Below are positions 8,131-37,999 of a DNA stretch of 64,000 bases, in pieces. Below the pieces are notes generated by a model. That model did not search any database, had not been told where the DNA came from, and saw only the letters and a program-made list of their open reading frames with translations. The stretch's first letter is position 1; each line of letters opens with the position of its first letter. This stretch comes from Eledone cirrhosa (lineage: Eukaryota), in NCBI GenBank assembly GCA_964016885.1, contig OZ024740.1, forward strand, positions 257,300,001-257,364,000. Reading direction: 5' to 3'. A program made the position numbers and the translations under genes.

Positions 8131-8239
<109 letters not shown>

Positions 8240-8249
8240 TAAAGTCTAT

Positions 8250-8355
8250 GAAGGCGCGTGGTTGAGTGGTTAGAGTATTGGATTCGCAATCGTGAGGTTG
8301 TAAGTTAGATTACCAGACTGTGTCCTTGGGCAAGACACTTTATTTCATGTTGCTC
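8250..8355 (+). mobile_element. tRNA-derived SINE head (second family); copies at 13113-13220 (+) and 44735-44841 (-)
   Basis: ggcgcgtggttgagtggttagagtattggattcgcaatcgtgaggttgtaagttagatt (A/B-box-like) followed by tgtgtccttgggcaagacactttatttcatgttgct. Confidence 0.7.
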
Positions 8356-10341
8356 CTTCTACCCGGATTTGCGATTAGAAAGACCAACGGAAACATTGTG
8401 TCCGCGGTCCGATTTGACGATCGGCTGTCGATATATATTTATGAATGTATGTATAGTATATTTGGCAATATACCGTATGTGTAATTAAAAGCATTTAGAA
8501 GACCATTTGCTATGACTTTTAAAGTAGTGACTATGTCACTTACTTATTTTCTACAAAAAAAATATATATATATTGATTAATTAAAGGTTAATTAGTCTTA
8601 ATATTTAAACATCTCAATGAGTGGAATCATTCAGAGAAGCAATATTATATATTAAATTTAAGCGAGAAAAAAACTCTCTTTATGGGAGTACAAACCAAAA
8701 TACACAAAAACAATATTTTATCTAAACTCGTTTATATACAGATCTCCCTGCCATGATTCCGTTTTCGGAAGAACTCATATTGAGCCGCCAATAATTGAAG
8801 AATCCGCAATACTCTCCAGTGGAGTTTAAATTCTTCAATAGCTAAGAGACAATAAGTTATACTTATTGTTTCATTTGCCGATGTAGCATGCTGAACAAAA
8901 CACCACGATGCGTAGTAGAAATATTACGATATAAAAAATCCCTTAACATATTAGAACTATGCTTAGTTCGATAAAATAAACTACCAGTAATGCACTGGGT
9001 AATTGCTGGCCTTGTGCCTAAAGTAGAAACAAGTATTATTAGGCTTATGATGCCGCTAGAAATAGTAGTGGAATCACTCAGAGTAGATTATTTCGGATTC
9101 TTCAATTATTGGTGGTTCCAATAAGAATTTAGATACAACTAATGTTGACTGGCTATCGTCAATTAAAGTGTCTTGCTCACAAGCATACAATCATAAATTA
9201 AACAACCTTATAATCATGAGTGCCCCCTCATTATACAATACCCAAGCGCCTTCCATATTGCCTAGAAATGTCACAAAAACATAATCACAACACGTATCAC
9301 GAAAGAGAAATCGTGCCCTACACAACCAAAACGCCCAAAGCTAAAACGCCCCAAACGACTACAAATACAAGATCATAGAACCACTGTGGGTCTCCCCTAG
9401 TGGGAAGATCTGCACCACAAAATGTTTATTAAGCCTGCTATGAGCCCTGTCTGAATATTGTTGATCAGTGGGAGGTTAAAGTAGAAGACAATAATGTGTT
9501 GTCCATGTGGTGTACTATTTAAGTAGTAGCGTTTCGGAGTTCCAACTCTCATGCGTTGCTTTCATAGCCCCCTGAAGTAACATTTCTGAAGCAAATGACT
9601 GGAGAAGGTCACTTATGACCTACCCAGGCTAGTGGTAGGTTTCGATATATTTACAAGAAGTTAATTTCAACATATCTATAATTACTCATCATATCGTCCG
9701 TACACCTGTAATGTGAAGATGATCACAGCTGAATTCGAATTCAGATCTTAATCTTCCCATCATCGTATCATATAGCGTTATATTTGACGTTCTAACGACT
9801 TTTAAAGATACATCCACAATTTAACATGAATTATTTCACCTATATTCGACATGACTTTGAGTGATATATGAAGAGATATAAAATAGGATTCCTAATTTAG
9901 ATGTACAAAAAACATGACCATTCCTCTGCGTTAGGTCACCCTGACAAATATCTTACAAGGTCTACAGAAATTTGAACCCATATTCAGCGAAATTCACTGA
10001 TAAGGGAAATACACATACAAAATATATAGAGATAATCTGCTAGTGCTTATTTTTCTTTGGTGCTGGTAAGAAAAGGTTTTTAACATTGTAGATCATTGAG
10101 AAAGGAAATCGTCTGTTGTCTCTTCTGGTAACGTTTTGAAGGGTTATTGAGATAATGGGGAATTGAGAAATAGATAGACCGAGAGAAAGAGAGAGAGAGA
10201 GAGGGGGAGAGAGAGGGAGAGAGAAATAATGTAAGTGAGAGTGGATGAGTGTAGGGGAGAGATATTTAAAATGCAATTTTACATTTAGATTTTAGTAACA
10301 ACGCATTGAATTACTTCTTTCATAGTTCCGCACTATATGTA

Positions 10342-11275
10342 TATTTTTCGTAATCTCCCATTCAGTAAGGACTCAAGCTTTCCAATGTCTTTTCTCATTT
10401 CCTTGATTTGAGCATTCAGCCGTTTCTTCCACCAAGGTTCTGATCTTTCTTGTTTGTTGTTTCCTCTCGTTTTTATGCCAAGTAATTTCTTCACCGCATT
10501 TGCGGTTTCTTTGAGGATATTGTTGCATTGGTGAGGGTTCCTCGCCACAAGGTATGGTATGACTTTGTTTACCTTAGCTGTTTCTTTTAACTTTTCCTAT
10601 CTACAAATCTTAGGTTCATAGGTTTTCCACTATCATTGTTCATTTCATCTACCACTAAGTTCAGGATGTTAACCAAATATTGTCCTAGCCCGTCAGCATT
10701 CCTTTCCTCAATGACCGTATCTTTGTTCCATATCTTATTTATTTCAGTATTCAGATTACTTCGGATGCCTCCTCCGGTCTCTCAACCTCTACACCTTCAT
10801 TTCCCGATGGCTCCTTTGCCTGACATACTCCACTCTCCATTTCCAACTTAATCTCTCTGCTCAGTTCTTCCAGTTCCAACTCGCTTATCCATCCATTAGT
10901 TCTTATTACCCGAGCCTGCCCGGCCAATTTTTGTTCATCTAATTTAAATAGACCATTCTCGTTTCAGATGTTATGCATCCGTTTCCTATAGCCTTTTTCA
11001 ATGGGGTTACTCTTCAGGTAGCATTTCATGACAGTTCTATTCAATTCTTTCGTCCAGTTGGTTCTTGTCCCTTTCCTTCTTCTTCTTCCTCCAACACCAG
11101 CAGTATTTGGATGAAAGCCAGATCTCTGCTGTTGGGCCAGGGAGCACTTGCTGGACGAGAGTCTTTCACATGACGTTCCAGTCTCCTTTTCACCGTTATT
11201 CGAACTGTTTAGTTTCGAGAGTTAAACACTCATATCGAGGATTGGTGAATATATGGTTACATAACCACCGGTGAT
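10342..11275 (-). mobile_element. R4/Dong non-LTR element 5' part, truncated by the duplication junction
   Basis: EPWWKKRLNAQIKEMRKDIGKLESLLNGRLRKI is identical to the ORF at 47406 but is cut at 10342. Confidence 0.85.
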
Positions 11276-11624
11276 TTCATCACCCCCCCCCCCGGTGATT
11301 TTAGCGTGGCACCATCACACTGTAGACGAACATAAATAAATCAACAAACAAGTAGATAAACACTTTAAAAAATAAACATGTTTCATTGTAATGTTTGAAT
11401 GTTTGACATAGTTTTTTTTTTTTTTTCCTTTTTGTTTTTTCAAGGCCAGTAACATCGGTTACTAGTGTTGATGTTGCTGCTGCTGCTGCTGTTTTTGATT
11501 TTAGCTACGAGGGAAGTAGAGGTTGTTGCGTTCAAAACTTTTGAAATTTGTTTTTCTTTTGCTCTTGCGTTTGTTTTTGTCTGTGTTCTGTTCTGTTTTT
11601 TTTACGACTTGTTGCTTATCTGGT

Positions 11625-11832
11625 AAAATAAAGTACCAGTAATGCACTGGGTAATTGCTGGCCTTGTGCCTAAAGTAGAAACAATTATTTACGCAGTAAT
11701 ACACTGGGTAATTGCTGGGCTTGTGCCTAACGTAGAAACAATTATTTACGATCTGAGTTCAAATCTCGCCAAGGTTAACTTTGCCTTTCATCCATACAGA
11801 GGTCGATAAAATAAAGTACCAGTAATGTACTG
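11625..11832 (+). mobile_element. SINE fragments with reiterated 3' tails
   Basis: Two copies of ctgggtaattgctgg.cttgtgcctaa.gtagaaacaattatttacg followed by a B-box body. Confidence 0.75.
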
Positions 11833-12400
11833 TGGGGTTGCTCTTGTGCAGCCATTAACATTCCTTCTGTAGCTTTTTAAAGGTCTCCTCTTTTTAACCA
11901 GCTCCATGTCTGTGGATCTCTGAATTCTGTTATCTTAAAAAAGGTGCTATGAAGGGATTTTTCATGAAAGTTGTTCTTCTTCTACGTTGTTACTTCCTCC
12001 TTGGACATCCCCTGGTCTATTGTCTACTTTTTCAGTACAACTTTCAGCATTACCTCCCTACTCTAGACACATATTAGTGCAGACTACTATTCTCCATCTG
12101 AACACAGTCCTCTACGGTGAAAAGACCTCTTGCACCTTCAGATATCTTTAAGTAGAGTCTATCAAAATCACTTCTCTTGTGGAATATGCAGTAGGTAGTC
12201 ATTAGCTTCCTAGTCTTTCTATCCATTTCTTTGTGTTCAGTAACGTTCCATTTAAGAATTCCCGCACTGTGCCTAATAATGGACAGCTTGGGAATTTACT
12301 GCACTTATGACATTCCTACTATTTAGATGTGATTTTAGCATGTTTCTTACTCTCCTTATGCATTCGGATCTTATCAGTTCCTTCATTTTTTTGTTCTTGA
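11833..12400 (-). mobile_element. Degenerate R4/Dong RT C-terminal fragment (copy at 45560-46110, +)
   Basis: ECIRRVRNMLKSHLNSRNVISAVNS; similar to 48430-48790. Confidence 0.8.
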
Positions 12401-12589
12401 TGTCAATTGCCACCTGACCGCCGAAATTGTTATATATATTCAGTGTCGTATCACAATGATTGCATAAATACACAAATGATTGTGTAAGCATCTGACGAAA
12501 TCACATGAATAACCATGTAACTGAAATATATACAATATAACAACAATTATGGTGATTTAATCACGTCTTAACTACTATTATTTGATAAA

Positions 12590-12775
12590 GGGCGGTGGAT
12601 TGGCAGTATCGGTAGAGGGTCGGACGCCATGCTTTCCAGCATAGTTACGTCCCTTTACGATCTGAGTTCAAATCCCGCCGAGGTTGACTTTGCCTTTCAT
12701 CCTTACGGGGTCGATAAAATAAAGTACCAGTAATGCACTGGATAATTGCTGGCCTTGTGCCTAAAGTAGAAACAA
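12590..12775 (+). mobile_element. Full-length tRNA-derived SINE with TSD (copy at 45172-45360, -)
   Basis: A box TGGCAGTATCGG, B box GAGTTCAAATCCC, TSD attatttgataaa at 12577-12589 and 12775-12787. Confidence 0.9.
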
Positions 12776-12864
12776 TTATTTGATAAATGAATACTCCATC
12801 TTTTATTATCACCTACCTGGCATAATCTACTGATGTTTAGTGTTTATTATCAGGAAGTATACAT

Positions 12865-12920
<56 letters not shown>

Positions 12921-13112
12921 GGGAGAGAGAGAATGACATAAGGAGATGGTAACAATTAGGAAAAGGTAAAATGAGCAGTACACTAGGAGAAATAAATAGT
13001 TAAATAAATAAGATTGAAATGCTCTCACACACACACACACACGCACACGCACTCACACACGCACACGCACACACACACACACATACACACACATATATAT
13101 ATAGTGTGTGTG

Positions 13113-14328
13113 TGAAGGCGCGTGGTTGAGTGGTTAGAGTATTGGATTCGCAATCGTGAGGTTGTAAGTTAGATTACCAGACTGTGTCCTTGGGCAAGAC
13201 ACTTTATTTCATGTTGCTCCTTCTACCCGGATTTGCGATTAGAAAGACCAACGGAAACATTGTGTCCGCGGTCCGATTTGACGATCGACTGTCGATATAT
13301 ATATATGAATGTATGTATAGTATATTTGGCAATATACCGTATGTTTAATTAAAAACATTTACAAGACCATTTGTTATGAGTTTTAAAGTAGTGACTATGT
13401 TACTTACTTATTTTCGACAAAAATATATATATATATATTGATTAATTAAAGGTTAATTAGTCTTAATATTTAAACATCTCAATGAGTGGAATCATTCAGA
13501 GAAGCAATATTATATATTAAATTTAAGCGAGAAAAAACTCTCTTTATGGGAGTACAAACCAAATACACAAAAACAATATTTTATCTAAACTCGTTTATAT
13601 AAAGATCTCCCTACCATAATTCCGTTTTCGGAAGAACTCACATTGAGCCGCCAATAATTGAAGAATCCGCAATACTCTCCAGTGGAGTTTAAATTCTTCA
13701 ATAGCTAAGAGACAATAAGTTATACTTATTGTTTCATTTGCCGATGTAGCATGCTGAACAAAACACCACGATGCGTAGTAGAAATATTACGATATCAAAA
13801 ATCCTTTAACATATTAGAACTATGCGACAGGCTTATGATGCCGCTAGAAATAGTAGTGGAATCACTCAGATTAGAGTATTTCGGATTCTTCAATTATTGG
13901 TGGTTCCAATAAGAATTTAGATACAACTAATGTTGACTGGACTAACTTGAAATAAAGTGTCTTGCTCACAAGCATACAATAATAAGTTGAACAACCCCAT
14001 ACCTTGGGTATTGTACAATGAGTCCCCCTCATTGTACAATACCCAAGCGCCGTCCATATAGCCTAGAAATGTCATATCAATATTGTCCTATTTAACAACG
14101 CAAAAACATAATCACAACACGTATCACGAAAGAGAAATCGTGCCCTACACAACCAAAACGCCCAAAGCAAAACAATAATGTGTTGTCCATGTGGTGTACT
14201 ATTTAAGTAGTAGCGTTTATATAAGTAGTGGATTAAATGTTTTAACACTAGGAGTTCCAACTCTCATGCGTTGATTTCATAGCCCCCTGAAGTAAACTTT
14301 CTGAAGCAAATGACTGGAGAAGGTCACT
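13113..14328. repeat. Older diverged paralog of 8249-9613 and, inverted, of 43478-44841
   Basis: First 175 bp are identical; after that, scattered substitutions and indels. Lacks the SINE tail present at about 8965-9040. Confidence 0.9.
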
Positions 14329-14536
14329 GATAATGAGTGCTAGAAGGTAAGGCGACACAAGTAGTAAACAGCTGACGAAGGGAAACTGTCCATCTCTTGT
14401 TTGTGTCGCCTTACCTTCTAACACTTGTTATCAATAACCACACAGCTTCGCCTTCCACAATCCATTTTTTTGTATTAACTATCTCGCTCAATTTGTTGTT
14501 CCTGGTCGGACTTATATCCCGCCACGCTTTTGGATC

Positions 14537-14615
<79 letters not shown>

Positions 14616-15160
14616 ACGATTGGCTTCTTTGTCCCGGTTGCACGTGCGTCGTACACCTTTTTTATTAACTCCCTTTGCCTTCTCCTCGCTCTCTCTCTCT
14701 CTATATATATATATATATCCCTCTTACGCACCACCTCTGCCTTCTACCCCGTCTCACTTCCGGTTTCTCCATCTTTCTCTCACTCTGCACTATACTGAGA
14801 ATAATAGGCATGGATTCACCTGCTCCTCTTTTATTATGGCCCTCGGACTTAAACCCAATGGCTTTGTTTAACTTGATCTATCTTCTCTTCGGTTACTCAC
14901 TTATATGTGTCATTGTCCTGTGTTCCCCTTCTATCAGTATGTTTACTTCGCCCCTTTTTTCTTCGCCCCTTTTTTCTTTCTTTTTCTCTCACCTCGCTAT
15001 CACTTCTTTCCCCCATAGCTTTTTGATAGATAAAAGGCTATGGGCACGCTATAGATATATATTCTGTTTATAATGCGTCGAAACATCCATGACCCGTAGT
15101 AAACAGCTGACGAAGGGAAATTCTCCATCTTTTGTTTGTGTTGCCTTACCGTCTAACACT
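14329..15160 (+). mobile_element. Degenerate Neptune-like PLE with pLTR direct repeats and an inverted 5' tail
   Basis: gtagtaaacagctgacgaagggaaa..gccttacc at 14361-14425 and 15096-15160. 14329-14360 is an inverted copy. FIMALGLKPNG resembles a GIY-YIG C-terminus. Confidence 0.55.
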
Positions 15161-15512
15161 ATATATATATATTTGTGTGTATGTATATATATGTGTTTGT
15201 GTGTATGTATATATATATTTATATATATCGTAATCCACCTAGTTGCGATGTTAGAACTCAATGTGTCCTTGGAAGGATGGTTGCGGCGAGATTTGGCAGT
15301 GTGACCATTAGTTTTTGTTGTAGGTGATTGCCGCTTAAGGTATACTCGAAGAAAATACGGCCGGGATACAGAGTCATTTTCATATATGTGTTTGTGTATA
15401 TAACAAAAAAAGTCATGTGTAGGTAGATAGTTAGTTTATTGTTTTGCGATCGTTTCAGAGGGTCAATTGATCGATGGAGATCGATGTATCAACTAGCTTG
15501 GTAGTGGGTAAT

Positions 15513-15624
15513 TTACTACCTATTTATTATCTCGAAATCCCTGATCAATCGGCCGTCTTTCTCAGAAATATCCCGAGTAAACAGCGGACAGAAGTGGGAT
15601 TTCGAGACTAGAAATAGGTAGTAA
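15513..15624. mobile_element. Small MITE-like foldback with 29-bp inverted ends
   Basis: ttactacctatttattatctcgaaatccc ... gggatttcgagactagaaataggtagtaa. Confidence 0.55.
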
Positions 15625-15716
15625 CTTAACCACTACCATGCTTATCGATACATCCGTTTTTCACTCTTCGCGGGTGGTCTATGTACGTAACCCCCGCGAA
15701 TACCTTAGAGCAACTG

Positions 15717-15822
<106 letters not shown>

Positions 15823-16104
15823 AACGGAGAGAGTGAGGGGGAAAGAGAGAGAGGAAGGGAAAATAAAAGATAGATAGATAGATAGATATGGGGGGAATAG
15901 AGAAAGAGAATGTTAGTGAGAGAGAATGCGATAGAGAGAGAGATGAAGGGGAGGGGTATTTCTGAGTTCTCCAACGATAATTGTACCAATAATTCTGCAA
16001 TATTAATTCATCAAATCGAAATATTTTATCTCGTTCTGCAATCTTTTCATTAGATATTTTTTTTAATTTCTGGTTTTTGTTGTTGATTTTGCGTACCACA
16101 GTCA

Positions 16105-16545
16105 TAGAGATGATGATGATATTAATGCTGAAGATGGTGGAGGTGGTGGTGATGGAGATGTGGGTGATGATTATGTTGATATTTATGATAGTGATGTTGA
16201 CGTGGTAGAAAGCGATGGTGGTAGCGATAATGATAATGTTCCTGATATTAGTTGTAATGGTGGTGGTGGTGGTGTTGGTGTTGGTGTTGGTGATAGTAGT
16301 GTTAGTGATAGCTGTGTTTTTATTGGTGCTGATTTTGTTGTTGGTGGTGTTGGTACTGTTTCTGGTGGTGATGTTGGTGATGTCACTGATGGTTAAGTTT
16401 ATGAAGGTTATTGTAGTTGGCATGGTAATGGTGACAATAATGATGTTCATGATGGTTCTTCTGATGTTCATAATCGTGATGATAATAATGGTGGTGTTGA
16501 TCATGATAGTGGTGATTATAATGTTGTGTTGTTTATTATGGTAAT
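16105..16545. repeat. Degenerate (GAT/GGT/GTT)n low-complexity tract
   Basis: Trinucleotide mosaic that explains the long I/T/N-rich and V/M-rich ORFs. Confidence 0.9.
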
Positions 16546-18065
16546 GCTAATGGCGGCATACTTGAAAACAGAACATTGATAAAAGTGATTAATGCTGATC
16601 TTTTGTAGAGGTACAAAAATTGAGTGACGAAGAAGTGAAATGATGAGAAAGTGAATCTTTTGTAGTATGGTAGAAGAGAAGTGAGAGTTAGTCTACTAGT
16701 GGTTAGAGCCTCATTCATGAGTCGTTATCAGTCATTTAAATAGTTTTCTTTTGGAATCGGTTTTGTATATTTGCGGATTAAACATGAGCGAAGTTTCAAT
16801 TAGTGAGAGCTATATTTTAAGTTGCAGGAAACTTTAGCATTTTTAGATCAGAAAATACCTCAGCTTTTCTATTTTGAGCTATTTTCTGCCATCCAACAAA
16901 ACCTAGGATCGGCCCCTGGGTACTTATTGCCATATGCTAGTGCTACAATGGGCACCCTCTCCCAGTTACCCAAAATAAAATAATTTCAACTTACAGTTTG
17001 AGAAGTTAAAAAGAAAACACTTGTGATACATTTTCCTTTGACCACACAAACTTTGCCATGCCTGCTTTTTCTACTACAGAATTAAAACGCGAATCCTATG
17101 TCAGCGCAAAACACCATACGACCTTCACCACAGCTTTAGATAAATCTACGAAGCACACGCACCTGTTCGTTTTCATTTCAATTTTTTTTAAATTAAATTA
17201 CCCAGTCGCTTAGTTTAATAACCGGATGGTTGTTTACTTGTTGAGTGTCAAAGCGCTTTTATCACACATTGCGAATTCCTCATTGACTACTTTTGTTGTT
17301 ACTTTGAGTCTCTCATTTGTTCCTTTTTATACCATCTTATATATATATATGCATTGAATGTATTGTATTATAGTAGATTCCCATGACGCCATATAGTGAG
17401 TGCATAGTTAAACGACGGAGAGTGTGGAGCTTGTGATATTGATGTCATAATTTTGACAGGACAGTCATAACTCCCATGCTCATATTGATATTTATATATC
17501 AAATTATTCATCTGCGAAACTTTGTTATTTACCAGTCTGTGCACTACTACTCTGTACATGTTAATTCTGAAGATGAGGATGTGAAAGCCTCGAACCTTAA
17601 TGCACACACAGATTTAAGAGCGTTATTGATACAGACTAACCAAACAACTTCAAAGGAAATATGAAACATCCTTAATAAAAATGATCAAATGCGAGTATAA
17701 TTTTTCAATATAACATGTTTGAAAGAAAATATGTTTTCTATATACTCACATACAAACAGAGACATCGAGGTACATGCAGGGACACAAACATATATGTGGG
17801 TGTGTGTTGTGTATATATATATATATATATTTCATTACTACAAGTATTGAGAGCTCTTTCAATTAATGAAATACATATTCCTAAACTTTTCGTATTTATC
17901 GTTGTTTTTCTATTCGGTCGTATTTCTTGGTGTCGCACTTTTTAACTGTTGGGTTTTACTCTGGACGATAATGTTTAGCTTCTCGATCCATTGAGTCCTT
18001 TATGATTGCTCCAAACAACTCGATTAGTACCTGCTATATGGCGGCTACAATTTCGATCCATACCC

Positions 18066-18098
<33 letters not shown>

Positions 18099-18147
18099 GG
18101 GGGGGGGGCGTTAGTGAATGAATAATAATAATATAATAATATCATAA

Positions 18148-19000
18148 AATTATTAATATTCGGTTTGTTTACAAGTAAACAGCCTCATAAAACACTACGT
18201 GGTAGACGAAAATGTCCTGAGAGCAAAAATCGACAATTGACAATTGTTTCGGAGTGTCTTGGTCCTTGTCAAGATTGTGTATTCTGATTTTTACTGCTAA
18301 TCGCTGGAACTACCGAGAATACAAAGTGTTTTCAAATGTAAGCATACCAGGCGATTTTACAGCTGGCCTTGCCTAAAAAAAAAAATGTGTTTTCGCTTTT
18401 AACGTGGTGGATACCTAAATGAATTCTCCTAGTAATAATGTATATAGTTTCAGTGGTGCAAAGATCGCAGACGCGCTAAAAAGCTGGAATCACTTATGGA
18501 AACGATTTTGTGAACGTGCGCCAAGACAGAAAATATTGTACACGGTCAGATTTAAGCCTCAATATGTGTTCGGATAGTACCGTGTTTCGTCTCCTATCTA
18601 TCCGGTTAAAGGAGTGGCGATGATTGTACCATCTATCCTTACAACTAGTCCTTGTTACGCCGATGTAGTTATACGTTTCATCACTAGTGTTAAATCTATT
18701 TTCATACATTATATTTCTATGGAGTCATTTATATTGCATAGGGCAGTTGGCTGGAATCCTGCAGTTACAGTTGATGTTACTATCGCGTGTTGTGTTACGG
18801 TTATATCTGTCTGTTTATTTCGCTCTCTGCTGTGGGTTACTGGAATGGTGTCTATTTTGTCTATTATTCCATGTCCTTATTATGTTTTCGTAATGTCCAG
18901 GGTTATGTTCCGTAGTGTGTGCGTTTGCGTTATGTTCAATCTACAATTTTTAAAAGTTAATCCTGGCTATGTTTTGGGCAAGGTTTTTGGTGGTAGAATA
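18148..19000 (-). mobile_element. PLE (Hydra-clade-like) 3' fragment: CxCx4CPx4C linker, GIY-YIG, pLTR
   Basis: CNCRIPANCPMQYK*LHRNIMYE..YNYIGVTRTSCKDRWYNHRHSF..LSEHILRLK..W..CDLCTTE. Degenerate HHR at about 18225-18275. Confidence 0.8.
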
Positions 19001-19494
19001 TGATAGATTAACTGTGTGTCTATTAAATATCATGCTGTATCAACAAAGTAATATTCATATTCATCTGAAGCACTCCAACAATTATATGATTTAAAAAAAG
19101 ATATATTTAATGCAGACCTGATGTTATATTACAAATCATAACATTTCATACAGAAAAAAAATATATGTGTGTGTGTGAGAAAGAGAGAGAGAGTAAAAGG
19201 TAAACAGAAATAACAACACAATCGGTATAGTGTATGGAAGGAATATAAATATTCTACCTACTACATTTATTACTAAATAATCAATAATATTTAATTATAT
19301 ATAATAAAGATATATTATTAAAAACATTAATAAATAATTATTTTAAAGAATATAAATAAATAATTATGCTTCAGCTTATTATTTCGGAAGTTAAAGGAAG
19401 GTGATTTGATGAGTTAAGTCTGTGTTAGATTTAAAGAGTAGATAATTGTTTATCGGGAGTAAAGGAGGATTTGAAATAAGTAGTAAAATATCAC

Positions 19495-20720
19495 ATGACA
19501 GGTGCAATGTGTCCGAACACGAAAGAGCCGACCTCCCACTGACATCACCTCACCCTCCCGAAGGCGGCGAGCACTGTGGCGACAGGAAAGCGGGCGGAAG
19601 CCGAAAGAGTGCACGGTGGATCCGCAGTGACATTTGTGTAGCTGGCAGATCCGGAGGACAAGTTTCAGGGAAACGCCGGTGCGCAGGCGTCGTTGTCCAG
19701 CTGCGTGCCGGTGGAGAAGGGGGGTAAGGCATAGAGCCAGTCACTACTGTGAGGTTTGGATGCCGGGCGAAAACAGGCAAGGCGGTGCTGGTCGAGCTTG
19801 TGCGTTAGCCTATCTGAGGCCAGGCTGCACTGAATGGCATCCCAAATACTTTGGGGGACTTGACTTCAGCAGGCGGAGAGGAGGAGGGACGTTTACTGGG
19901 CTAAGTCCCACGTCTCGCAGGGCGGCTTCACGTTCCTCGATCACAGAGGGTTCCATTGCGTTTAGGAGAACCCTGCTGACGAGAATGCGGCATGAGGTTA
20001 CCGTTAAAGAAACGCCGGCAAAGCCAGCGAGATCGGGGACCGGAGACCAAGGCCACCATATCTAATAGGTAAAGTGGCCTGTTGCCATCTAATGTCGTCA
20101 AAGCTGACGTTGCATATCTCCGAGCTGATACAAGTATGAAAACCAGCGATGAGAGATGCGTGGCTGTAAGACGGGGCGCTGCGAAGGGTATAGAGGAGCT
20201 TCGGCATGGCGAAGCAGTTCCTCAACAGGAAGAGGGCTGGGTGGCCGTCAATCATGCCCAGTCGGCTCGTGAGGTCTTGAGTTGCTGGAACCTGAACCTG
20301 ATGGTGCAGCGGATGGCCTGCGGGTGGATCGGTGACCCGATGATGACATCCTCTTTGGGATCACCTGTACCTGGAGAATGGACCGCACGTCTGAGACGTA
20401 GGCTGCAAAGATCTCAGCATCGTGGTTGACATTCACCACCTCCGACTTGGACGAGTTAATCTGGTGGCCAATTCACACCAGAGCAGGAACCATCAATTGC
20501 AGGTCGTGGCAGACGGTCTCTTCGGGCCCGCCCAACGTAACATCATCCAAGTACGATCCGCAAAAAAGAGGCCTCGGGTGTGAGGGTCCAGGGCGCCATG
20601 GATAAACCTATTGATGAGTGTCACAATTGCAATAAGAAGGCGGCGCCCGGCTTCAGTGGAGAGGGGAGATAACAACTCCATGAGTAGGCCAGGTCGGAGA
20701 TTATCAGCACCTCCGCTGTT
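19495..20720 (-). mobile_element. CRE-clade non-LTR retrotransposon, internally deleted remnant
   Basis: SGGADNLRPGLLMELL..AGRRLL; HPALFLLRNCFAMPKLLYTLRSAP..WQQATLPIRYGGLGLRS..LALPAFL. GC-rich island. Confidence 0.8.
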
Positions 20721-21169
20721 TATCCAAATAATATTGATGGGTGCATATATTTGAATTAATATGTTAAGTATTTACATTTATTTAAGTGGTAATATATATA
20801 TATAGCCACTATCTATAATTTACTCAACTGAGCCTTTATTATGGCAATGAGACTAAGTAACCTTAATAGATCCGAAATACATATCATTTCAACAGCTCGT
20901 AAGACTATAATCGAATTTTATCGGTGCCTACGGACACTTCAAAATACACCAAATAACTTTGATATCACAATGGGATCCAGTTACTCAGCCAAGCCACAAA
21001 TCTTGTCAGACTATATCTAAGAGTAATTAGCATAAATATATCATACCTAAAAGGTGGTTTGTACCGAGATGATTCTCTTGTTGTCCCTGAGTATAAGAAA
21101 CACAGCATAGAAAGAACTAGAAAAGACTTACATAAACTATTTAACAAACAATAACCTAGGTATAACTAA

Positions 21170-22140
21170 AGACATAAATATTAAAATGGTCAATTCTTTA
21201 GATGTAAATTTAGACGTTACCATAAATGAGGGAAGCACGTCTGGTACGTAGATAAAATCAATCTACCCGAAAACAATATTTAAGTCAATAGTTGAAGATA
21301 TATCTAATAGAATTAGCACCTTTTCTTATAATGAAACTAACCGAAATGCACCACATTATAATAAAGCTTTATTTCGATCAGGCCACACTAATAAAATTGG
21401 ATATATAGATGGTAGTATAAATGAGGGTAGACCAAATAATATAATATCATATAATATGGCAATGAATAAATACAAATTAAAATACCATAATGATAATCTA
21501 AATAACCGTACAATAGATAGGAATACACAGACAAATACCAATATTATAGAGAATAATAGTAAGAAACATATTAAGAAAAATAAAATAAACACACATATAT
21601 GCTTACTCTTTAAACCCCGCATAAAACCAGCAACCCAAAATATTATGACCATTAAATCTAAACAACCAGAAACCCCCACAGATAAATCTACATACACAAT
21701 TAAGCAGCATAATAATATAAACATAAGCCAAAATAACAACAATAAAAGAAATTGCAGACGATTAAACACATTTTGAACCCACCATTTAATTTTAAAATAT
21801 TTCTAATATACGTAAGCTCTAATTCTCTATAAAAGTTAGGAAATTCTCCCCTGGGCATAGATACCATAGACTAATTAATAAAATACAATTAAACAGTTTC
21901 GCAACTACACCTAATATAGCCGCAAAATTGGCTTTTTGGAACGCTAGAAAATAAAAAAAACACATCAAATCATTTCAAATGAATATTAGCTCTCCGCGAT
22001 TGAATTTATCCAACAAAAATAACGTTTCAAATAATAATACTAATGACCTAATACCTGATAATATAAATAGCATACAAATTACAGCTAACTCATCAAATAA
22101 TATGAATCACAACACATATATATATATATACTATCACAAA
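21170..22140 (+). mobile_element. PLE (Hydra-clade-like) RT thumb remnant with Asn-rich insertions
   Basis: MVNSLDVNLD, ISNRISTFSYNE, APHYNKALFRSG, PPFN and GHRYHRLINKNTIK motifs occur in the expected order. Confidence 0.7.
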
Positions 22141-22272
22141 AATACTGCATCTCTATGATGTAGTGTTTGTGCATAGTAGCCACGAAACTGCGCAGTCGAG
22201 GATGTTGAGAATATTGGGTATATATATATTTTTATTTAATTTATGTTTAATGTTTCTTCTTTCTTTATAATG

Positions 22273-22312
<40 letters not shown>

Positions 22313-22349
22313 TTATATATAAATGTGTATGTGTGTGTATGCATAAATA

Positions 22350-22425
<76 letters not shown>

Positions 22426-22954
22426 TTGTTTAAATATATAGGCACCCGTTTACGTGTGTTTTACTGAGATACAACCGGTCCTGGCATTGATAAATATGCT
22501 GGGTCCGTCAACTCCTTATTATATATATGTATATATATTTAAGGTAAAAAGAGTATTAACACAGATAATCAGTACCGTATAAATATATATATAAACAGAA
22601 GAGGTGTACGGGATAACATTTTGGGTTACCTTAGCAAAGGTTAAGATTAATCTGTACCGAGGAATTCTACAGCGTATGGTAGTAGTAGACTCAACAAATT
22701 ATTTACTTACTTCGGTGTTTTGGAGGGTAGTTCCTGAAAGTTCCGAGATTAGTAGATTTTGGAATAGTAAAAACAGGTGAAATGTATTTGAATATATTAA
22801 GTTTCAACAAGGTAACATTCATATTCATCTGATGCAATCCAACAATTATTGATTAAAGAAAAAAAAATGTACTGCAGAGCTGGTGTTTATATTACAAATC
22901 ATGAAATTTCACACAATGTATATATATATATATATATATATATAATTTAAGCCC

Positions 22955-23012
<58 letters not shown>

Positions 23013-23059
23013 GCTTAAATTCTATATATATATATCGGCTTAAATGATATATATATATA

Positions 23060-23851
23060 AATTGTAAAAATGAAACGAAATTTCATTTCTCACTCATAGT
23101 ACGACTGTTACTTAAATATACATACATATATGTATACAGACGTACAGTAGTATGTATATATATATATACATACAAGCACACACATATATATGTACCTATG
23201 GGTTTACCGAACATTTATTCTAATGCTCGGTTTGTTTGTAAACAAACAGCCCGAATTAAGTCGTACAGTGTCTAGCAACCATCGTTGCCCTTTTGTTCAA
23301 CACTGACAAAGGAACGATGTTCTAGTTTCAAACTTATTAGCTATCGTCATCATCGAATACCTTCCTGCCAGATGATTGAACGTCTGAAAGTATATACTTT
23401 CCTTATGCATATTAACGGTTGAGCAGCCTAATTTGCATATCGACAAAACATTTGCATATGTTCAAAAGGGCAACGATGGTTGCTAAACACTGTACGGCTT
23501 AAATCGGTCTGTTTGTTCCTTTTTTCCATTTATCATTTTCGGTGCGCCCGGCCGACTAACTCACTCGATATACTTTCAGACGTTCAATCATCTGGCAGGA
23601 AGGTATACGATGCTGACGATAGCTAATAAGCTTGAAACTAGTACATCGTTCCTTTGTCAGTTTGAACAAAATGGCAACGATGGTTGCTAAACACTGTACA
23701 GCTTAATTCGGGCTGTTTGTTTACAAACAAACCGAGCATTATAATAAATGTTCGGTAAATCCATACGTACACATATATATGTGTGCTTGTATGTATATAT
23801 ATATACATACTACTGTACGTCTGTATACATATATGTATGTACGTGTACATA

Positions 23852-23857
<6 letters not shown>
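23060..23857. mobile_element. HHR family A, head-to-head pair with patchwork centre
   Basis: Minus copy 23060-23443, plus fragment 23460-23518, plus copy 23519-23857. Confidence 0.8.
23582..23667 (+). ncRNA. Intact type I hammerhead ribozyme (family A)
   Basis: ACGATG-CTGACGA-T-AGCT-AATA-AGCT-T-GAAA-CTAG-TA-CATCGT (23607-23649). Stem I extends through AAGG/CCTT, CTGGCA/TGTCAG and GTTCAA/TTGAAC. Confidence 0.85.
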
Positions 23858-23921
<64 letters not shown>

Positions 23922-24304
23922 TGTCTCTCTTCCTCTTTATGGTACAGTCTATGAACAAAAAAAGCAGAAATATCAAATCAAACAATCCTAAATATTTGTT
24001 GTTTTTCTTGTCTGTCACGAGGAGTCGTCAATGATTTTGGGATGTCATGTACATGGTTAAATCCCTTCATAGCGGCGGGGCATGAACTGGCCTGTAAACA
24101 AGGGGGACAGAGTAAGAGGACGGTTTGACCTGTAGGTGCCAAGCCGGTAAGGCGTTAACAGAGAAATCTTTACAGCTATCTTTCATTTATAGAGGCGGTA
24201 ACCTACAATTCAAAGAAGTAAGAAAGTAATTTAAGCACGTAAGAATCATGTAAGAATCAGTTGCTAATCTTCCTTAGGTTAACCCGGAGTACTAACACGG
24301 ATAA

Positions 24305-24637
24305 GCGATATAATAGTGTTTATTTCAAGCGTTAACACATGTTTCATCGCCTGATTATAAATTAATTCTTGTCTTGAAACCGCTATCATCAATAATGGAT
24401 TGACAATCGTGATATTTTATTTTAAATACATAACGTAATATAACTATCAGGTGAATTTTTAAAATACTGATACGTATTTTGAAAATTGACCTGGTAGCTA
24501 TATTATTTTAGGTATTTAATATCGAATTTCACAACTTTCAATTGATTATTGATGACAGCGGTTTCTAAACAAGAATCAATTCCTAATCAGGCGATGAAAC
24601 ATGTGTTAATGCTTGGAATAAACCCTATCATATCGCA
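24305..24637. mobile_element. Foldback element with about 100-bp diverged inverted arms
   Basis: ttaacacatgtttcatcgcctgatta (24332) versus taatcaggcgatgaaacatgtgttaa (24584). Confidence 0.7.
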
Positions 24638-24901
24638 TTTCACAGTCTGTATACATATATGTATGTACGTGTACATACTTATATTTAAGTAACAGCTGTA
24701 CTAAGTGTGAGAAATGAAATTTCGTTTCATTTTTTCCATTTATATATATATGATTTAAGCCGATATATATATATATATATATATAATTTAAACCCATATA
24801 TATATATATATTTATATATATATATATATATGGGCTTAAATTATATATATATATATATATATATATTTAAAAGAATAGAGGTGTAACACACGAGTTGTGA
24901 T

Positions 24902-25709
<808 letters not shown>

Positions 25710-26266
25710 TGTGTGTAATTTCATGATTTGTAATATAAACATCAGGTCTGCAGTAAATATATATTTTTTTTAATCAATAATTGTTGGATTGCATCAGATG
25801 AATATGAATTTTACCTTGTTGAAACTTAATATATTCAAATTTATTTTAGGAAAACATTTAATACAAATGACACCATTTTAAAAAATATAAACTCACTCTA
25901 AGAAACATAAATCCTCTCTAAGAAACTAACAATCTATATTATTTTCGTAACTACGATATTTTTTTAACTACGATGTTTTCGAATTGTATTCTTAACTGTA
26001 AACTTAAATCGTGATACTTTGATGAGTGATATATATATATATATAATCTTTTCTATTTGTTTTTTTCTGAAGTGACTTGTATTGGTATTTTAATTAAACT
26101 ATGACGACACCCACAGTCTATGATCACAAATGGTTAATTGTTAAATAAAATGATTTGATATATGTAACATAACCCAGGTAGAAACAATTGTCAGTTATAA
26201 ATGTGCTAAACACTTAAATTCTTTGGTTTGTTAACAAACTGTTAATCTCATATATATATATATATA

Positions 26267-27357
26267 TATTGTTATACTTGGGGAGGGTCATATTTGTGTA
26301 CTATTGCCAGAATTAATAACAGAACACACTCACTGTTTGGTTGGTTTTCGCTTTTCGCTTCTGTGTCTTTTATATCGGTAATCTAATTTATTCGGTCCTC
26401 AATGTTGCCATTGACTGACCAACGGTCAAAAACACAGATAAATATAGACACAAACACATATATATAGTTTATCAAAGTTCTTTCGTTGCACATCTGCAAC
26501 ATCGTCAGTGGTGCTATTGTTTCCTCCAGTTGCATTGTATTTTCTACGCCATCTTTATTTAGTCTGTTTATATATTTATTTATTTGTTTATTTTATTTTG
26601 TCTTCTTTGCGCATACGTTTGCGTGTGTGTATGGTGTTTTATTTGATGTGTATTCGTGATTGGGTGACTGTGTATTGGTTAATGTATTCTATCTTTACTA
26701 GTGTGTGTTTATATGTGTTTGTTGTTATTGTGCTTGTGTAGCATTTATTTATTTATTTAACTATTTATTTATTTATACTTCTCTTAAAAAATGAATGGAA
26801 TAACAACAACACCCAAACAAACAACACTGACCTAAGAGAAGTATAAATAAATAAATAAATAGATAAATAAATAAATACATACACAAGCACAATAACAAAA
26901 AACACATATAAACACACACTAGTAAAGATAGAATACATTAACCAATACACAGTCACCCAATCACGAACACACATCAAATAAAACACTATACACACACGCA
27001 AACGCATGCGCAAAGAAGACAAAATAAAATAAACAAATATATAAATATATAAACAGACTAAATAAAGATGGCGTAGAAAATACAATGCAACGGGAGGAAA
27101 CAATAGCACCACTGACGATGTTGCAGATGTGCAACGAAAGAACTTTGATGAACTATATATATGTGTTCGTGTCTATATTGTATCTGTATTATTTTTGACC
27201 GTTGGTCAGTCAATGGCAACATTGAGGACCGAATAAATTAGATTACCGATATAAAAGACACAGAAGCGAAAAGCGAAATCCAACCAAACAGTGAGTGTGT
27301 TCTGTTATTAATTCTGGCAATATTACACAAATATGACCCTCCCCAAATATAACAATA
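26267..27357. repeat. Large palindrome, arms about 520 bp, spacer about 46 bp, one HHR motif per arm
   Basis: 26267-26786 versus 26833-27357. Near-identical ORFs on opposite strands in the ORF track. Confidence 0.95.
27103..27156 (+). ncRNA. Minimal HHR motif (mirror copy at 26464-26517, minus)
   Basis: CACCA-CTGACGA-T-GTTGCA-GATG-TGCAAC-GAAA-GAACTT-TGATG. Perfect 6-bp stem II; stems I and III are imperfect. Confidence 0.65.
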
Positions 27358-27830
27358 TTTGTTTCGACACACGATTTCATATAAAAAACCTCGCAAAACT
27401 AATTCATCGCCGTTATGTGTGTGTGTGTGTGTGTGTATTTGTGTGTGTTTGTGTGTATGTATGTGATATTTTATAATTCATTCGCTACATAACTTAATCC
27501 TCTATTTCAACAATATTCCTAGGTTCCACTATAGTCTCACCACCCTCACCACATTGACAACTAAATTACCCCATTATCTCCCACTTCCTTCCAACCACAA
27601 CCGCCTATATATCTCCTCTTGTACACCCCATCCACGATAAAAACACCACTATCTATATTTACGTGTACATCACCCAGTAAAAAAAGCAGTCGGAAGTCAG
27701 GGAAGTGATGTGAGGGTTATTTCATATATTTTATCTTACCTTACATCCGCCATATTTACATTTTTACTTTGAAGTTTTGCTGTTATTCTTATTTTGTCAG
27801 TAATTCTTTCCCTCCTCTCTATATTTCTCT

Positions 27831-27905
<75 letters not shown>

Positions 27906-28160
27906 GTATATATATATATATATATAATGTATATATATATATATGTATATATGTATATATTATACACAGAGAGAGAGGGGAGGAGAAAGAGAGAAAGAGA
28001 TGGACTAAGAGAGAGAGAGAGGGAAAGAGACAGAAAAGAATGTATATACATATATGCATCTATATATACACATACATATAAATATACATTCATACATATG
28101 TATTTTTAAGCATGCATACATATACATATGTACACACATACACCCGCATACACACACTCT

Positions 28161-28463
<303 letters not shown>

Positions 28464-28689
28464 TATATATATATATAATGTAATTAATTTATATTCATAC
28501 ACGGAATAAGAGCCCTACGTAAGTATTGAAGGTACAACTATGACCATCTATCGAGATTGTAAAAGCGATCAAATGTGTGCCCTAGTCATCAGACGCTTGG
28601 ACGAGTCTGAAGGTGCCGTTAACAATTGTGGTGTATAAATGCTTCATTATGAAAAACAAATATTTATATATTAACGTAGTATAACAAAA

Positions 28690-28995
28690 GGAGATAACTC
28701 ATGATGTTATTTTTAAATGGCTATGTTCTTGTTCGTGTGTAGTCAATATAGTGGATGTTTGGTATTATGTGCTGGTATGTGATATATAGATGCTTTTATT
28801 TATTAAAGTTATTGAATATCTTCTATCTCGTTCAAGCCCCTTATAACTAGGTTATAGTTATTTGATCGTTCCTACATTGTGTGGAGATGTTCATAATTGA
28901 ACGTTGAAACCTTAGGGAGTGGTTTTCTTCCTTATATATGTTTTAGCTGAAGCTAGTTATGTGACTATATTTGCTACCTTAAATTCATAGTGAAA
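28690..28995 (-). mobile_element. Highly degraded PLE GIY-YIG remnant
   Basis: YEFKVANI..AKTYIRK resembles the VYEFKC..TYIGK consensus. An isolated CTGATGA lies downstream at about 28586-28592 (minus). Confidence 0.35.
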
Positions 28996-28996
28996 G

Positions 28997-29002
<6 letters not shown>

Positions 29003-29060
<58 letters not shown>

Positions 29061-29160
29061 CGTTATATTATATTATATTATATTATATTATATTATATTA
29101 TATTATATTATATTATATTATATTATATTATATTATATTATATATTATATTGTATTATAT
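29003..29160. repeat. (TA)n followed by (ATTAT)n
   Basis: Direct observation. Confidence 0.95.
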
Positions 29161-30323
29161 TGTCTTAGGTTTCTTTAAACCTCACAGAAACTATATCATG
29201 TGCATAACACAAAGATGGAGCGGTATAGAAGTCCCTGAATTGATGTAACTGATAATAATGCAGGTTGTCAGATGTGACTTGCACGTCTGGTCATTCTTAT
29301 ATAAAATTGAACCTACACACCATATAACAGGCCGTAATTAAAATGCCACACCTTATGAACATTATAAAGTTGTTTCAATCTTGCATAACACCGCTTAATT
29401 TGCCGGTGAAATTCAATTTGTTTTGATAGCAAGCACATGTCCATAAATGTCTTTTTTACTGAAATATGTTTGAGGAAAAATATAATAGTATATACGAAGC
29501 CACTTTACATTTAGATACAGGATTAATTTGTAGTTTAATTATTTACCTATAATAACTACTTTTAGATCAGGTAGTTTAAATTAATAACAGTTATTATAAC
29601 ATTGTAATCTGATATGTATAATTTTATACAGACTTTCGCTGAAAATTTTAATGTATAAATCTAGCTAAGTCAACGAAAAATAATTGTTTAATTATGTATC
29701 TTTCTATATTCATTTATTGATACCTCACTGTCTTCTATCATAATATAAATAAGATTAATACCAGTGTTTTACCGATAATTTGTGTGCCGTTGAAATCTTC
29801 TGATAAAGAAGAATTAATTTTAAACTTTAATTCTTACAAAATTATTAATTCGCTTTTCTCTTTTTTATTTTTTTGTTTATGTTTAGTATTTTTTATATAT
29901 TGTTACGAATTAATCTTCATAGTTTTTCCTGTGGTGATACACCGTCGGTACTAAAAGTAATAATTCATCGAGTATTTATATAGAAATTCCAAAATTACAG
30001 GGCCAATATTTATGAAATAAATTGCTCGTGTTTCATTTACATCTAGAATCGCTAATCCAATTTAGATATCGGGATGAATCGACTTCAAATATGCTGTATC
30101 ATGATTTCACATATAAATACTCCATGGCTTATCACTTACAGTACCTACTTTTGAACAATACAGGAAAAAATATGAAACAAAATTCGTACGTTCGGTCAAA
30201 AACCATTATATGTTGACATCATCTTCGATTACATGTTACACACATTCACTAATTCAGCTAATCGAAACTGATTACTACTATAATCTGTCTGCCTCTCTGT
30301 CTTTCTCTATCTTTCGCTCTCTC

Positions 30324-30369
<46 letters not shown>

Positions 30370-30377
<8 letters not shown>

Positions 30378-30779
30378 TGCATATATAGTGTATTTTGTAA
30401 TACACTGTATGCTTAATTAAAAGCATTTTGAAGACCTTACCCTATTGTTTTAAAGTAGTGACTATGTCACTTACTTCTTTTTTTCAGTAAACAAAGGGAG
30501 ATAAGCTGACAGATCTCTGTTTCGTACTGTTAGTACTCCTCAGAGCTTAGCACTCCCTTTGCCTGCTGAAAATTATGAATGTTGGATTCTTATAGAATTC
30601 CAGTAATAATCAGTAACAGATCATACAGAGCGGTTGCCGGTCTAGCAAAAATTGAAAATTAGAATTGGTGCTCAGAAATAGCGATATATATATGACCCCA
30701 ATTTATCTCCCTTTGTTTGCTGAAAAAAGAAGTATGTTACATAGTCACTACTTTAAAACAATAGCGTAAGGTTTCAAAA
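30370..30779 (-). mobile_element. HHR family B element with an inverted 3'-tail copy
   Basis: 30426-30503 versus 30703-30779 inverted. The tail is homologous to 8440-8550, 13305-13415 and 44540-44650. Confidence 0.75.
30481..30572 (-). ncRNA. Intact full-length type I hammerhead ribozyme (family B)
   Basis: AAAGGGAG-TGC-TAAGCT-CTGAGGA-GTAC-TAACA-GTAC-GAAA-CAGAGATCT-GTC-AGCTTA-T-CTCCCTTT. All core bases present; GUC cleavage triplet. Confidence 0.9.
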
Positions 30780-30792
30780 TATTTTACACATG

Positions 30793-30833
<41 letters not shown>

Positions 30834-32545
30834 GGATTATTATAAAAGTGAGAACGGTGCTGTGTGGTCACCAATAAATACTATTTAGAATGCATGAGAG
30901 AAAACACAAACACAAGGACAATTCCAGCTCGTTAGCTATCCTCAGTGGATCGTTAATGTTTCGAACGCATTGAAAACAGTACCTTTCACCACATTGCTTT
31001 AAGAGCTAAAATGGATAGCAATCCGGGAAGAAACACAACGGACGATCACGCAGAGACCGACTAAAAAAAAAGCAAAAAAGAAAGAAAGATATACTGATAG
31101 AGAAATGACAAAAGACGACGACAGCAGTACATGAAAGTTGGATAGTAATGTACTGTCTTTTAGACTTTTCTACAAGGTATTCTGGTGAATGTTAAGTTCG
31201 TCAGGTTATTAATTTTTATTCTTGCTGTTTTTCAAAAATGTCTTTAGATTACTTCAAATTAGTTAGATAATACTATGATTGTCTCCAAATTTACCCATTT
31301 TAATGTAGTTATTTTAAGAGAAGTGAATAAAGAGCTTTGCAGCATTCGTTCCGGTTATATGCCTTGAATTAAAATCCTGCTGAAGCCAATTTTGCCGTTC
31401 TTTCATTCAGTGTCTGTTGTGTATTCCTTTCTCTTTCTCTGTTGAAGAAATCGACTGTGTTCAAACCTAGAGTAAGAAGGACTGCGCCAAATTTAAGTTA
31501 CGACTCTATTAGTCTATATATGTACCCATGAGTGTATATGGTTATTAGTATGGGGAAATCTAGACACAGCTCAACTATCTCAAAGCTGATAATATTAGTA
31601 TTCTAATTATTTTCAAGAATAGTTTTTACAAATTTATAGTATCATGCAGGTGATCTTTCTTCATCTTCTTCCCCAACTTATTCCTGAGAGGGTCGTGGGA
31701 ACAAAGTCCTCAAACAACCTTTCAAGCTAGTCCTGTCAGAGCAACCGTCTTCCACTGATCCGTCTGCATCCCCAAGCGAAACCGGACACGCTCATGGATG
31801 TTATCCAACCATCCTGCTCGGGGTCTAGCCCAGTGTCTTCGGTCGGTTGGTTTTTCCCGTAAAATCTATTCAGCGACTCTTTATTGATACATTTTTACCA
31901 CATGTCTCTAGTATCGCAGCTGTGATCTCACAATTCAGAGGAGGAGTGGCTCTACTTGGAGTGACTCTCTGATCTCTAAGCTACGAATTATATCGAGTAA
32001 TGTTATTCCAAAGACCCTTCGGAGGAACCTCATTTCGGCAGTTTATATTCGCGATCGAATGCATTCAGCCATTACACAAGATTTTTTACTATAAGCAAGA
32101 GTTGGCACGAGTACCGAATTGAAGATTGTGAGTTTGGCTTTTACACCTACCTCCATTTTTCTGATTACTAAATGCTGAAATTGGTGCTTTACTGGACCAG
32201 CTCCTGCAATTTTTGCACTTAATAATTCAGCCTCTTGCATTTCATCACTCGGGGGAACACGACTCCGAGATACTCTATTTGCTTCAGTAGAACTCCGTTT
32301 GCACGTAGACTGTACAGCGCAGGCTTCCCTGAGAGGACGAATGTCTCAGTTTTCGAAGCACTGATTTTCATAACAGTCATGCAACGTTCGGCATCAAACC
32401 TATCTAGTGCATGTCGGAGATCACCTTCTGTCGAATAATGTATCACCATGTCGTCTGCAAATTGCAGACAAATGATTTTACACCCACCTGTAATGATACC
32501 ACTTCCAACCTGGCTGCGCATGTTAATCCTGTTCATGTAAATAAT

Positions 32546-37580: not shown

Positions 37581-37597
37581 TGAGAGAGAGAGAGAGA

Positions 37598-37674
<77 letters not shown>

Positions 37675-37947: not shown

Positions 37948-37999
<52 letters not shown>

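Follow-up and report, generated by a model that had tools for sequence, protein, structure and literature searches.

A permuted, inverted duplication in Eledone cirrhosa that is likely to be a repair scar of two duplications flanking an inversion

Does a duplicate whose parts stand in swapped order record the re-integration of a circular DNA intermediate? The question is raised by a locus of Eledone cirrhosa within a stretch of 64,000 nucleotides (the window, that is, the whole stretch analysed). Here a retrotransposon-rich segment of ~4.9 kb is present twice, ~30 kb apart, inverted and with the order of its parts swapped. The locus does not prove a circular intermediate, and the circle reading is not established; the locus is likely to be a further case of a known DNA-repair scar, in which two duplications flank an inversion. 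Its value lies in teaching, as a clean example: a permuted copy is widely taken as proof of a circle, while a two-switch inversion yields the identical sequence at an inverted paralog on the same chromosome. The features are as follows.

8137..8248, plus strand: end of flank U, a (CA)n tract and a short left-specific tag abutting the first 175-bp block (sequence)
8249..8423, plus strand: H copy 1, a SINE-like 175-bp head (identity of three blocks)
8424..10341, plus strand: X' left copy, inverted twin of 42746-44666 (alignment; two genome copies; contig depth ~2x that of P')
10341..10342, unstranded: blunt junction, far end of X' joined to the cut LINE, where Y starts (alignment of the assembly)
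10342..13112, plus strand: Y left copy, inverted twin of 44842-47612, holding the 5' part of a minus-strand non-LTR retrotransposon, a SINE and other LINE fragments (alignment)
13113..13287, plus strand: H copy 2, direct repeat of 8249-8423 (identity)
13288..14331, plus strand: P', an older paralog that matches the first 1.2 kb of X' at 96.7% identity with 10 indels and ends at a fold-back repeat
14332..42745, unstranded: middle segment, single copy, without a long self-match
42746..44666, minus strand: X' right copy, running on into flank F at 42745 (alignment)
44667..44841, minus strand: H copy 3 (identity)
44842..47612, minus strand: Y right copy, running on into the remainder of the LINE past 47612 (alignment)
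46330..49311, plus strand: decayed non-LTR retrotransposon interrupted by stops and frameshifts, with position 47612 inside an open frame (47358-47795)

Global alignment gives a left unit of 4,864 bp and a right copy of 4,867 bp. Positions 8249-10341 are the reverse complement of 44841-42746 with three substitutions and two simple-repeat indels (1 bp and 4 bp), and 10342-13287 are the reverse complement of 47612-44667 with eight substitutions, one of them within a TA run, and five indels, all in homopolymers or microsatellites. In total 11 substitutions separate the copies (~0.2% difference), where the preliminary description had counted about a dozen. The 175-bp blocks at 8249-8423, 13113-13287 and, as reverse complement, 44667-44841 are letter-for-letter identical in all three places. 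The assembly contains two copies each of H-X' and Y-H and a single copy of 13288-42745; the duplicated segments measure 2.1 and 2.9 kb and lie around a 29.5-kb middle. In the genome, exactly two of the 68 matches listed for the unique part of X' are full length (40 of 149 candidates scored), and no further long recent duplication belonging to the same event was found in 144 kb around the window. The repeat family upstream of H copy 1 runs into a CA- or TA-rich tract in all five copies fetched.

The older paralog extends to about 14328-14331, with 38 substitutions and 10 indels over 1,147 aligned bases (96.7% identity). H-P' and H-X' are old paralogs in opposite orientation, and the longest identical run between them is the 175-bp block, followed by runs of 155 and 106. 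Under uniform divergence, the chance of a 175-bp identity is 0.07% at the first block and 3% anywhere. Alignment reproduced the lengths, the 175-bp repeat, the blunt junction and the older diverged paralog of the preliminary description; alignment and block comparison likewise bear out the permuted order, the end-to-end blunt joining and the homology-bounded landing site.

Under every model 10341/10342 is the sole new non-homologous junction. It shares no base, since the base after X' and the base before Y both differ in the assembly sequence; a 3-base match that is shifted by two bases is no more than chance would give and does not count as microhomology. The junction sequence matches full length only at this locus (40 of 1,336 candidates scored). 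We rejected a mobile composite element: with 40 candidates scored for each, the junction is found full length once and unique X' twice, these counts being lower bounds. At the position corresponding to 47612/47613, other genomic copies of the LINE run through like the right copy in eight cases out of eight (one printed one base out of register), and therefore the left Y is the cut one. Continuity of the LINE had been said to fix the direction of copying; this holds for Y but was overstated for X.

The mechanism is decided by the ancestral orientation of the middle, as exactly two new junctions result only if the middle was inverted. By block bookkeeping, the inverted ancestor requires two new adjacencies, X'/Y and Y-H-X', and loses none, whereas an ancestor with the middle unchanged requires three, X'/Y, U-H-X' and Y-H-P', and loses U-H-P'. 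It is the position of the landing site, in an inverted paralog at a distance of 30 kb, that allows the inverted-middle ancestor to give an identical product. This ancestor would read U-H-X'-F ... [middle reversed] ... rc(P')-rc(H)-rc(Y)-rc(D), and in it the old 1.2-kb paralogs would point towards one another. A broken fork from the LINE side would copy Y and H and then invade the inverted paralog within the 175-bp block, producing Y-H-X' and reversing the direction of copying. Copying would continue through X', F, the middle, P', H and Y, and would end by blunt non-homologous rejoining to the left arm at the end of X' (10341/10342). H copy 3 would then be a chimeric homology junction, with Y from one paralog and X' from the other. 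A search for the original flank of H (target-site duplication, split repeats) gave nothing decisive, and either answer would fit both ancestors.

This paired-duplication inversion (DUP-NML-INV/DUP), made by two template switches in break repair without a free circle, is our tentative choice, at somewhat under an even chance. Against it, the inverted ancestor is reconstructed, not observed, and the old H copies must already have matched over 175 bp, for which earlier conversion or inversion toggling has to be invoked; a break inside H with gene conversion would explain that identity directly. A blunt join also suits the end joining of free ends better; among human copy-gain join-points blunt ones are rare (9 of 159; PMC6902434, excerpt). 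One such alternative, which we consider rather unlikely, places a break in the left H with the middle not inverted: the left end would copy X' and the right end Y from the donor before the extended ends were joined bluntly. The product would be the same after a triple template switch, or if a short-lived tandem duplication of the donor had served as template for conversion. The 175-bp identity would then be a conversion tract and the blunt join the work of end joining. The two ends of one break may each copy from templates before they are joined again, and 20 chimeric acceptors were found in a set of 1,136 duplicons (PMC2671141, excerpt); kilobase tracts of homologous recombination can be terminated by end joining in a repair that, as here, leaves a nearby donor intact (PMC5104497, excerpt). 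However, three new junctions would be required, and both ends would have to invade one donor in opposite directions, while none of the nine cloned breakpoints in the excerpt of PMC5104497 is blunt or suggests dual invasion. Repair duplications are also short, those of the distant class not exceeding 3,424 bp (PMC2671141, excerpt), and most fall below the tract lengths seen here. The preliminary description was right that a triple switch gives this product; the two switches from an inverted-middle ancestor had not been considered.

Its main claim, the footprint of a circle, holds in so far as a circle recombining into the old paralog gives the product, but the pattern is not proof, as the inverted-middle ancestor gives the identical sequence. 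A circle of 4,867 bp whose ends were joined bluntly at 42746/47612, and which entered the old paralog within H by a single crossover, accounts for the permuted order, the exact unit length, the blunt closure and the homologous direct repeat at both ends, and crossover-associated conversion would explain the 175-bp identity. Blunt closure has a precedent in human cSDP1 (PMC7450558). Yet this route, which we regard as unlikely, calls for three junctions and two independent events, homology is lacking where human cSDP integration sites have been resolved (PMC7450558), and no feature of the sequence distinguishes it from chromosome-templated routes, whose products are identical. Only if the middle lies in its ancestral orientation would there be an empty allele that joins 8248 to 13113. 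If such an un-inverted allele exists, the locus becomes a candidate for homology-directed circle re-integration or two-ended repair in an invertebrate germ line. With a true circle, the locus would be a natural example, resolved to the nucleotide, of homology-directed re-integration in the germ line of a large-genome invertebrate, the acceptor being a 3%-diverged paralog at 30 kb from the source; the human cases, by contrast, are homology-free (PMC7450558).

The depth ratios in one public sample (S2) fit a real duplication, as the two-switch inversion supposes. Pooled X:P contig depth is 2.2:1; relative to P-only contigs, the depth is 2.29, 1.68 and 3.04 times as high in X-only contigs and 3.39 and 2.75 times as high in shared ones. 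P-specific contigs are present, and Y depth is swamped by repeats. These values fit two X' copies per old paralog, although a single-copy baseline is absent and a hemizygous P' without duplication would also give 2:1. Misassembly is improbable: an inversion between the old paralogs would have been heterozygous and its two haplotypes merged into one contig, so that X' and Y only seem doubled. Two alleles could also look like this pair, which differs by 0.2% and has changes in both copies; the junction was not seen in the contigs; and S2 carries right-copy alleles alone at 9163 and 9222. Set against this, the 64-kb window holds no N gap and the depth ratio is not 1:1. The S2 contig ends at 8994 in three of three runs, one base short of a left/right difference, which the presence of both alleles would lead one to expect, although the stop could also reflect a repeat boundary. 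The missing junction is uninformative, since over 9045-10378 two runs show no contig of either copy at 10170-10304. In a RAD run of 21 reads, the local alleles at 10349 and 10355 occur in 2 of 6, and bin depths fit with or without junction-spanning reads. Private changes since the duplication number four on the left and six on the right (p = 0.75, no excess on either copy), with derived alleles found on both. No U-H-P' joint was seen among the 15 joints listed out of ~4,000 at 88% likeness, a comparison swamped by repeat contigs, with H-flank phasing unreadable. A second-species run (share 0.07) gave short repeat pieces only, with no ortholog seen. S2 may be the assembled individual.

The two-switch inversion resembles DUP-NML-INV/DUP (PMC6902434, excerpt) and the dupINVdup class (PMC5338099) in having two duplicated segments around a copy-neutral one. 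As far as the excerpt of PMC6902434 goes, one junction there links the distal ends and one the proximal ends, the middle is inverted in one of three allowed structures, and in both cases one junction is mediated by oppositely oriented LINEs or Alus; here too, one junction would use oppositely oriented repeats, and the other is non-homologous. According to the same excerpt, the patients differ in that the second junction is microhomologous where ours is blunt, the PLP1 cases have megabase spacers against 2.1 and 2.9 kb around 29.5 kb here, and a reference supplies the ancestral orientation that we infer. Human cSDPs (PMC7450558) and eccDNA-mediated duplications (PMC7188851) share the flip from A-B/C-D to B-A/D-C, with donor ends fused bluntly or nearly so. 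In contrast, cSDPs are at least 22 kb and lie 0.09-58 Mb away or on other chromosomes, and the resolved ones integrate without homology (PMC7450558), whereas the landing site here is an inverted paralog of 1.2 kb that lies at a distance of 30 kb and shares an exact 175-bp block. Among the papers searched there was no direct precedent for a homology-integrated permuted duplication or, by title or opening of the abstract, for cephalopod eccDNA, which does not imply absence from print.

In the duplicated or inverted DNA Pfam returned retrotransposon domains only; no host gene turned up, which makes a phenotype unlikely and leaves the middle without a gene to orient it. Pfam matches occur in 3 of the 118 frames tested (1-46.7 kb), all to RT or endonuclease; Rfam gave six matches, all below the gathering score, and ARAGORN no tRNAs. 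Four frames of the decayed LINE gave no RT or endonuclease Pfam hit. This element has weak R2 matches (E 0.07-0.1) and atlas neighbours that are either unnamed or zf-RVT. The motifs of the LINE at 46330-49311 look Dong/R4-like, a clade marked by a single ORF with RT and a C-terminal restriction-like endonuclease. The H block is presumably a SINE-like head, and copies of its family are found at 70-84% identity.

The left copy, which spans 8249–13287 with both of its direct repeats, and its inverted right counterpart at 42746–47612 are the products of a recent, well-resolved and probably real rearrangement. With H denoting a 175-bp SINE-like head, X' and Y the duplicated blocks, P' an older paralog (13288–14331), middle the unduplicated 14332–42745, U, F and D the flanks, and rc the reverse complement, the window reads in left orientation U-H-X'|Y-H-P'-middle-rc(F)-rc(X')-rc(H)-rc(Y)-rc(D). 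The units measure 4,864 and 4,867 bp, and the spacer from 13287 to 42746 is 29,458 bp.

Duplicated blocks of the recent pair
8249–10341, forward strand: H-X', paired with the reverse complement 44841–42746; 3 substitutions and two simple-repeat indels
10342–13287, forward strand: Y-H, paired with the reverse complement 47612–44667; 8 substitutions, of which one lies within a TA run, and five indels in simple repeats

All three copies of H agree at each of their 175 bp, and no base is common to both sides of the join 10341/10342; together with the block alignments this bears out the preliminary description's inverted, permuted copy with its 175-bp repeat and blunt junction. P' is an older paralog of the first 1.2 kb of X': the two differ by 10 indels and by 38 substitutions over 1,147 aligned bases, which makes them about 16 times as diverged as the recent pair. 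In the 3.0-Gb genome the unique part of X' has at least two full matches and the join at least one (40 candidates scored for each). A mobile unit, which had been anticipated should the same junction recur at many loci, is therefore rejected on two full X' matches and one junction match among the candidates scored. The non-LTR retrotransposon (LINE) crossing the right-copy edge is continuous across 47612 in eight copies elsewhere, as in the right copy; left Y is therefore the cut one, as had been proposed. Derived alleles number 4 on the left and 6 on the right (omitting the TA-run site, with polarity resting on one comparator at 9222 and two at 12798); the left and the right copy have thus each accumulated changes, without an excess of repair mutations on either.

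That the join is an assembly artefact seems very unlikely. Roughly half of the words sampled occur in the contigs of the public sample S2 (runs X2–X4; possibly the assembled individual). Weighted by length, depth over the contigs listed there was 12.7, 9.8 and 10.5 where they match X alone (8 contigs), 5.6, 5.9 and 3.4 where they match P alone (8) and 18.8 and 16.1 in stretches common to X and P (4). The resulting X:P:shared ratio of about 2:1:3, a relative measure without a single-copy baseline, is that predicted for a homozygous duplication. The two-copy depth expected earlier is thus approached, but a hemizygous P' without duplication yields the identical ratio. Only right-copy alleles appear at 9163 and 9222, which is weak either way because such contigs lose one side of a bubble; the S2 contigs shown represent neither copy at 10170–10304, next to the junction.

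The rearrangement is of a known class. The first reading, a circular DNA intermediate recombined by single crossover into the older paralog, starts from U-H-P'-middle-rc(F X' H Y D); by symbolic block comparison it has to create U-H-X' and Y-H-P' as well as the blunt join, three new junctions in all. The permuted anatomy on which it was built stands, but it overlooked an ancestor that would differ solely in that the middle, lying between the old paralogs, is inverted. That ancestor reads U-H-X'-F-rc(middle)-rc(P')-rc(H)-rc(Y)-rc(D), and two new junctions suffice from it (the blunt one and Y-H-X') with no adjacency lost. Until it is settled which way the middle originally faced, the permutation does not count as evidence for a free circle. 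Under the inverted-middle ancestor the right-hand "donor" would itself be chimeric, so LINE continuity, earlier taken to fix the direction, identifies the cut Y but is silent on which X' is original.

Paired-duplication inversion by two template switches is the route that we tentatively prefer, at somewhat less than an even chance. It has the smallest junction count and a documented precedent: in DUP-NML-INV/DUP, as described in PMC6902434, one switch joins distal ends and another proximal ends, in its two cases one junction runs through repeats of opposite orientation, either LINEs (93% identical) or Alus (89%), and one of three compatible structures has an inverted middle; dupINVdup is listed as a standard subclass in PMC5338099. 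Starting from the proposed inverted-middle ancestor, the rearrangement here would follow the same two-junction scheme with a similar sort of repeat junction. Moreover, the paralogs have no identical block longer than H (175 bp, the next one measuring 155). However, both old H copies must have matched exactly beforehand, for which uniform divergence gives a chance of 0.07% at the first block and 3% at any block, and blunt joins are scarce (9 among the 159 join-points of the PLP1 cases in PMC6902434). Both points speak rather for a break within H that was repaired by conversion and end joining. With two-ended copying, each end of a single break would copy the donor, one in either direction, before the ends were joined to each other; this would explain H identity by conversion and the blunt join by end joining. 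Templates may be copied by both break ends (PMC2671141) and end-joining termination is demonstrated (PMC5104497), but none of nine clones described there was a blunt or dual-invasion product, and we regard this route, or triple-switch copying, as possible though unlikely. The free circle, which a break inside H would also suit, we place lower, as rather improbable: PMC7450558 reports blunt closure in one human case but integration sites without homology, and three junctions are needed. Three human circle-derived duplications are described in PMC7188851, whose authors leave other scenarios possible. These rankings are judgements made without computation.

Among 118 complexity-filtered stop-to-stop frames of at least 62 aa in 1–46.7 kb, three had Pfam matches, all to reverse transcriptase or endonuclease; no host gene that could orient the middle was found among them, though short exons would escape. 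The LINE at ~46.3–49.3 kb is decayed; the Dong label given to it earlier was not borne out, weak R2 matches being all that appeared. The repeats of the window presumably resemble octopus repeats. Dong-R4 is counted among recently active Octopus vulgaris LINEs in PMC13282606. The LINE family in Y (10325–11379) has a summed contig depth of ~5e4–1.5e5 in organism B versus 26–77 in organism A (likeness at least 88%), a hint of lineage-specific expansion. Yet another LINE-like family of high copy number is represented by a fragment at 45503–46124 (and 11835–12450), 85–89% like 38 other places and 83% like 48423–48794 of the neighbouring LINE. Broken minus-strand LINE fragments with RVT_1 and Exo_endo_phos_2 matches lie at 32222–35734. 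Another LINE family is clustered as diverged (62–85%) copies at 49700–64000 and in the flanks (~-27 to -15 kb and 68–75 kb), several within ~100 kb, with an RVT_1 domain at 55129–56334 (E 1e-24).

P' stops at a fold-back copy of a common repeat, the two being imperfectly similar over the ~10 bp where they meet; this suggests that, within the old pair, P' is the end that was truncated or derived. Within this fold-back (14322–14433), 14322–14360 copies, in inverted orientation, a part of the repeat beginning at 14361. The CTGANGA...GAAA motif of that repeat (14372–14386) seems reminiscent of hammerhead ribozymes of the minimal type in Penelope-like elements; the only Rfam matches were to hairpins, below threshold. 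A high-copy repeat at 7920–8136, which we take to be Penelope-like, has an internal inverted segment, a similar CTGATGA...GAAA motif and CA- or TA-rich tails in 5 of 5 copies compared. The tags preceding the left H copies (8240–8250 and 13100–13114) agree by eye at 8 of 11 bases, and a (CA)n tract comes before each of them; the start of the old paralogy may thus lie in the microsatellite, upstream of the SINE head. Long imperfect palindromes lie at 26266–27358 (92.7%), 24305–24636 (83%) and 7284–7915 (78% self-complementary).
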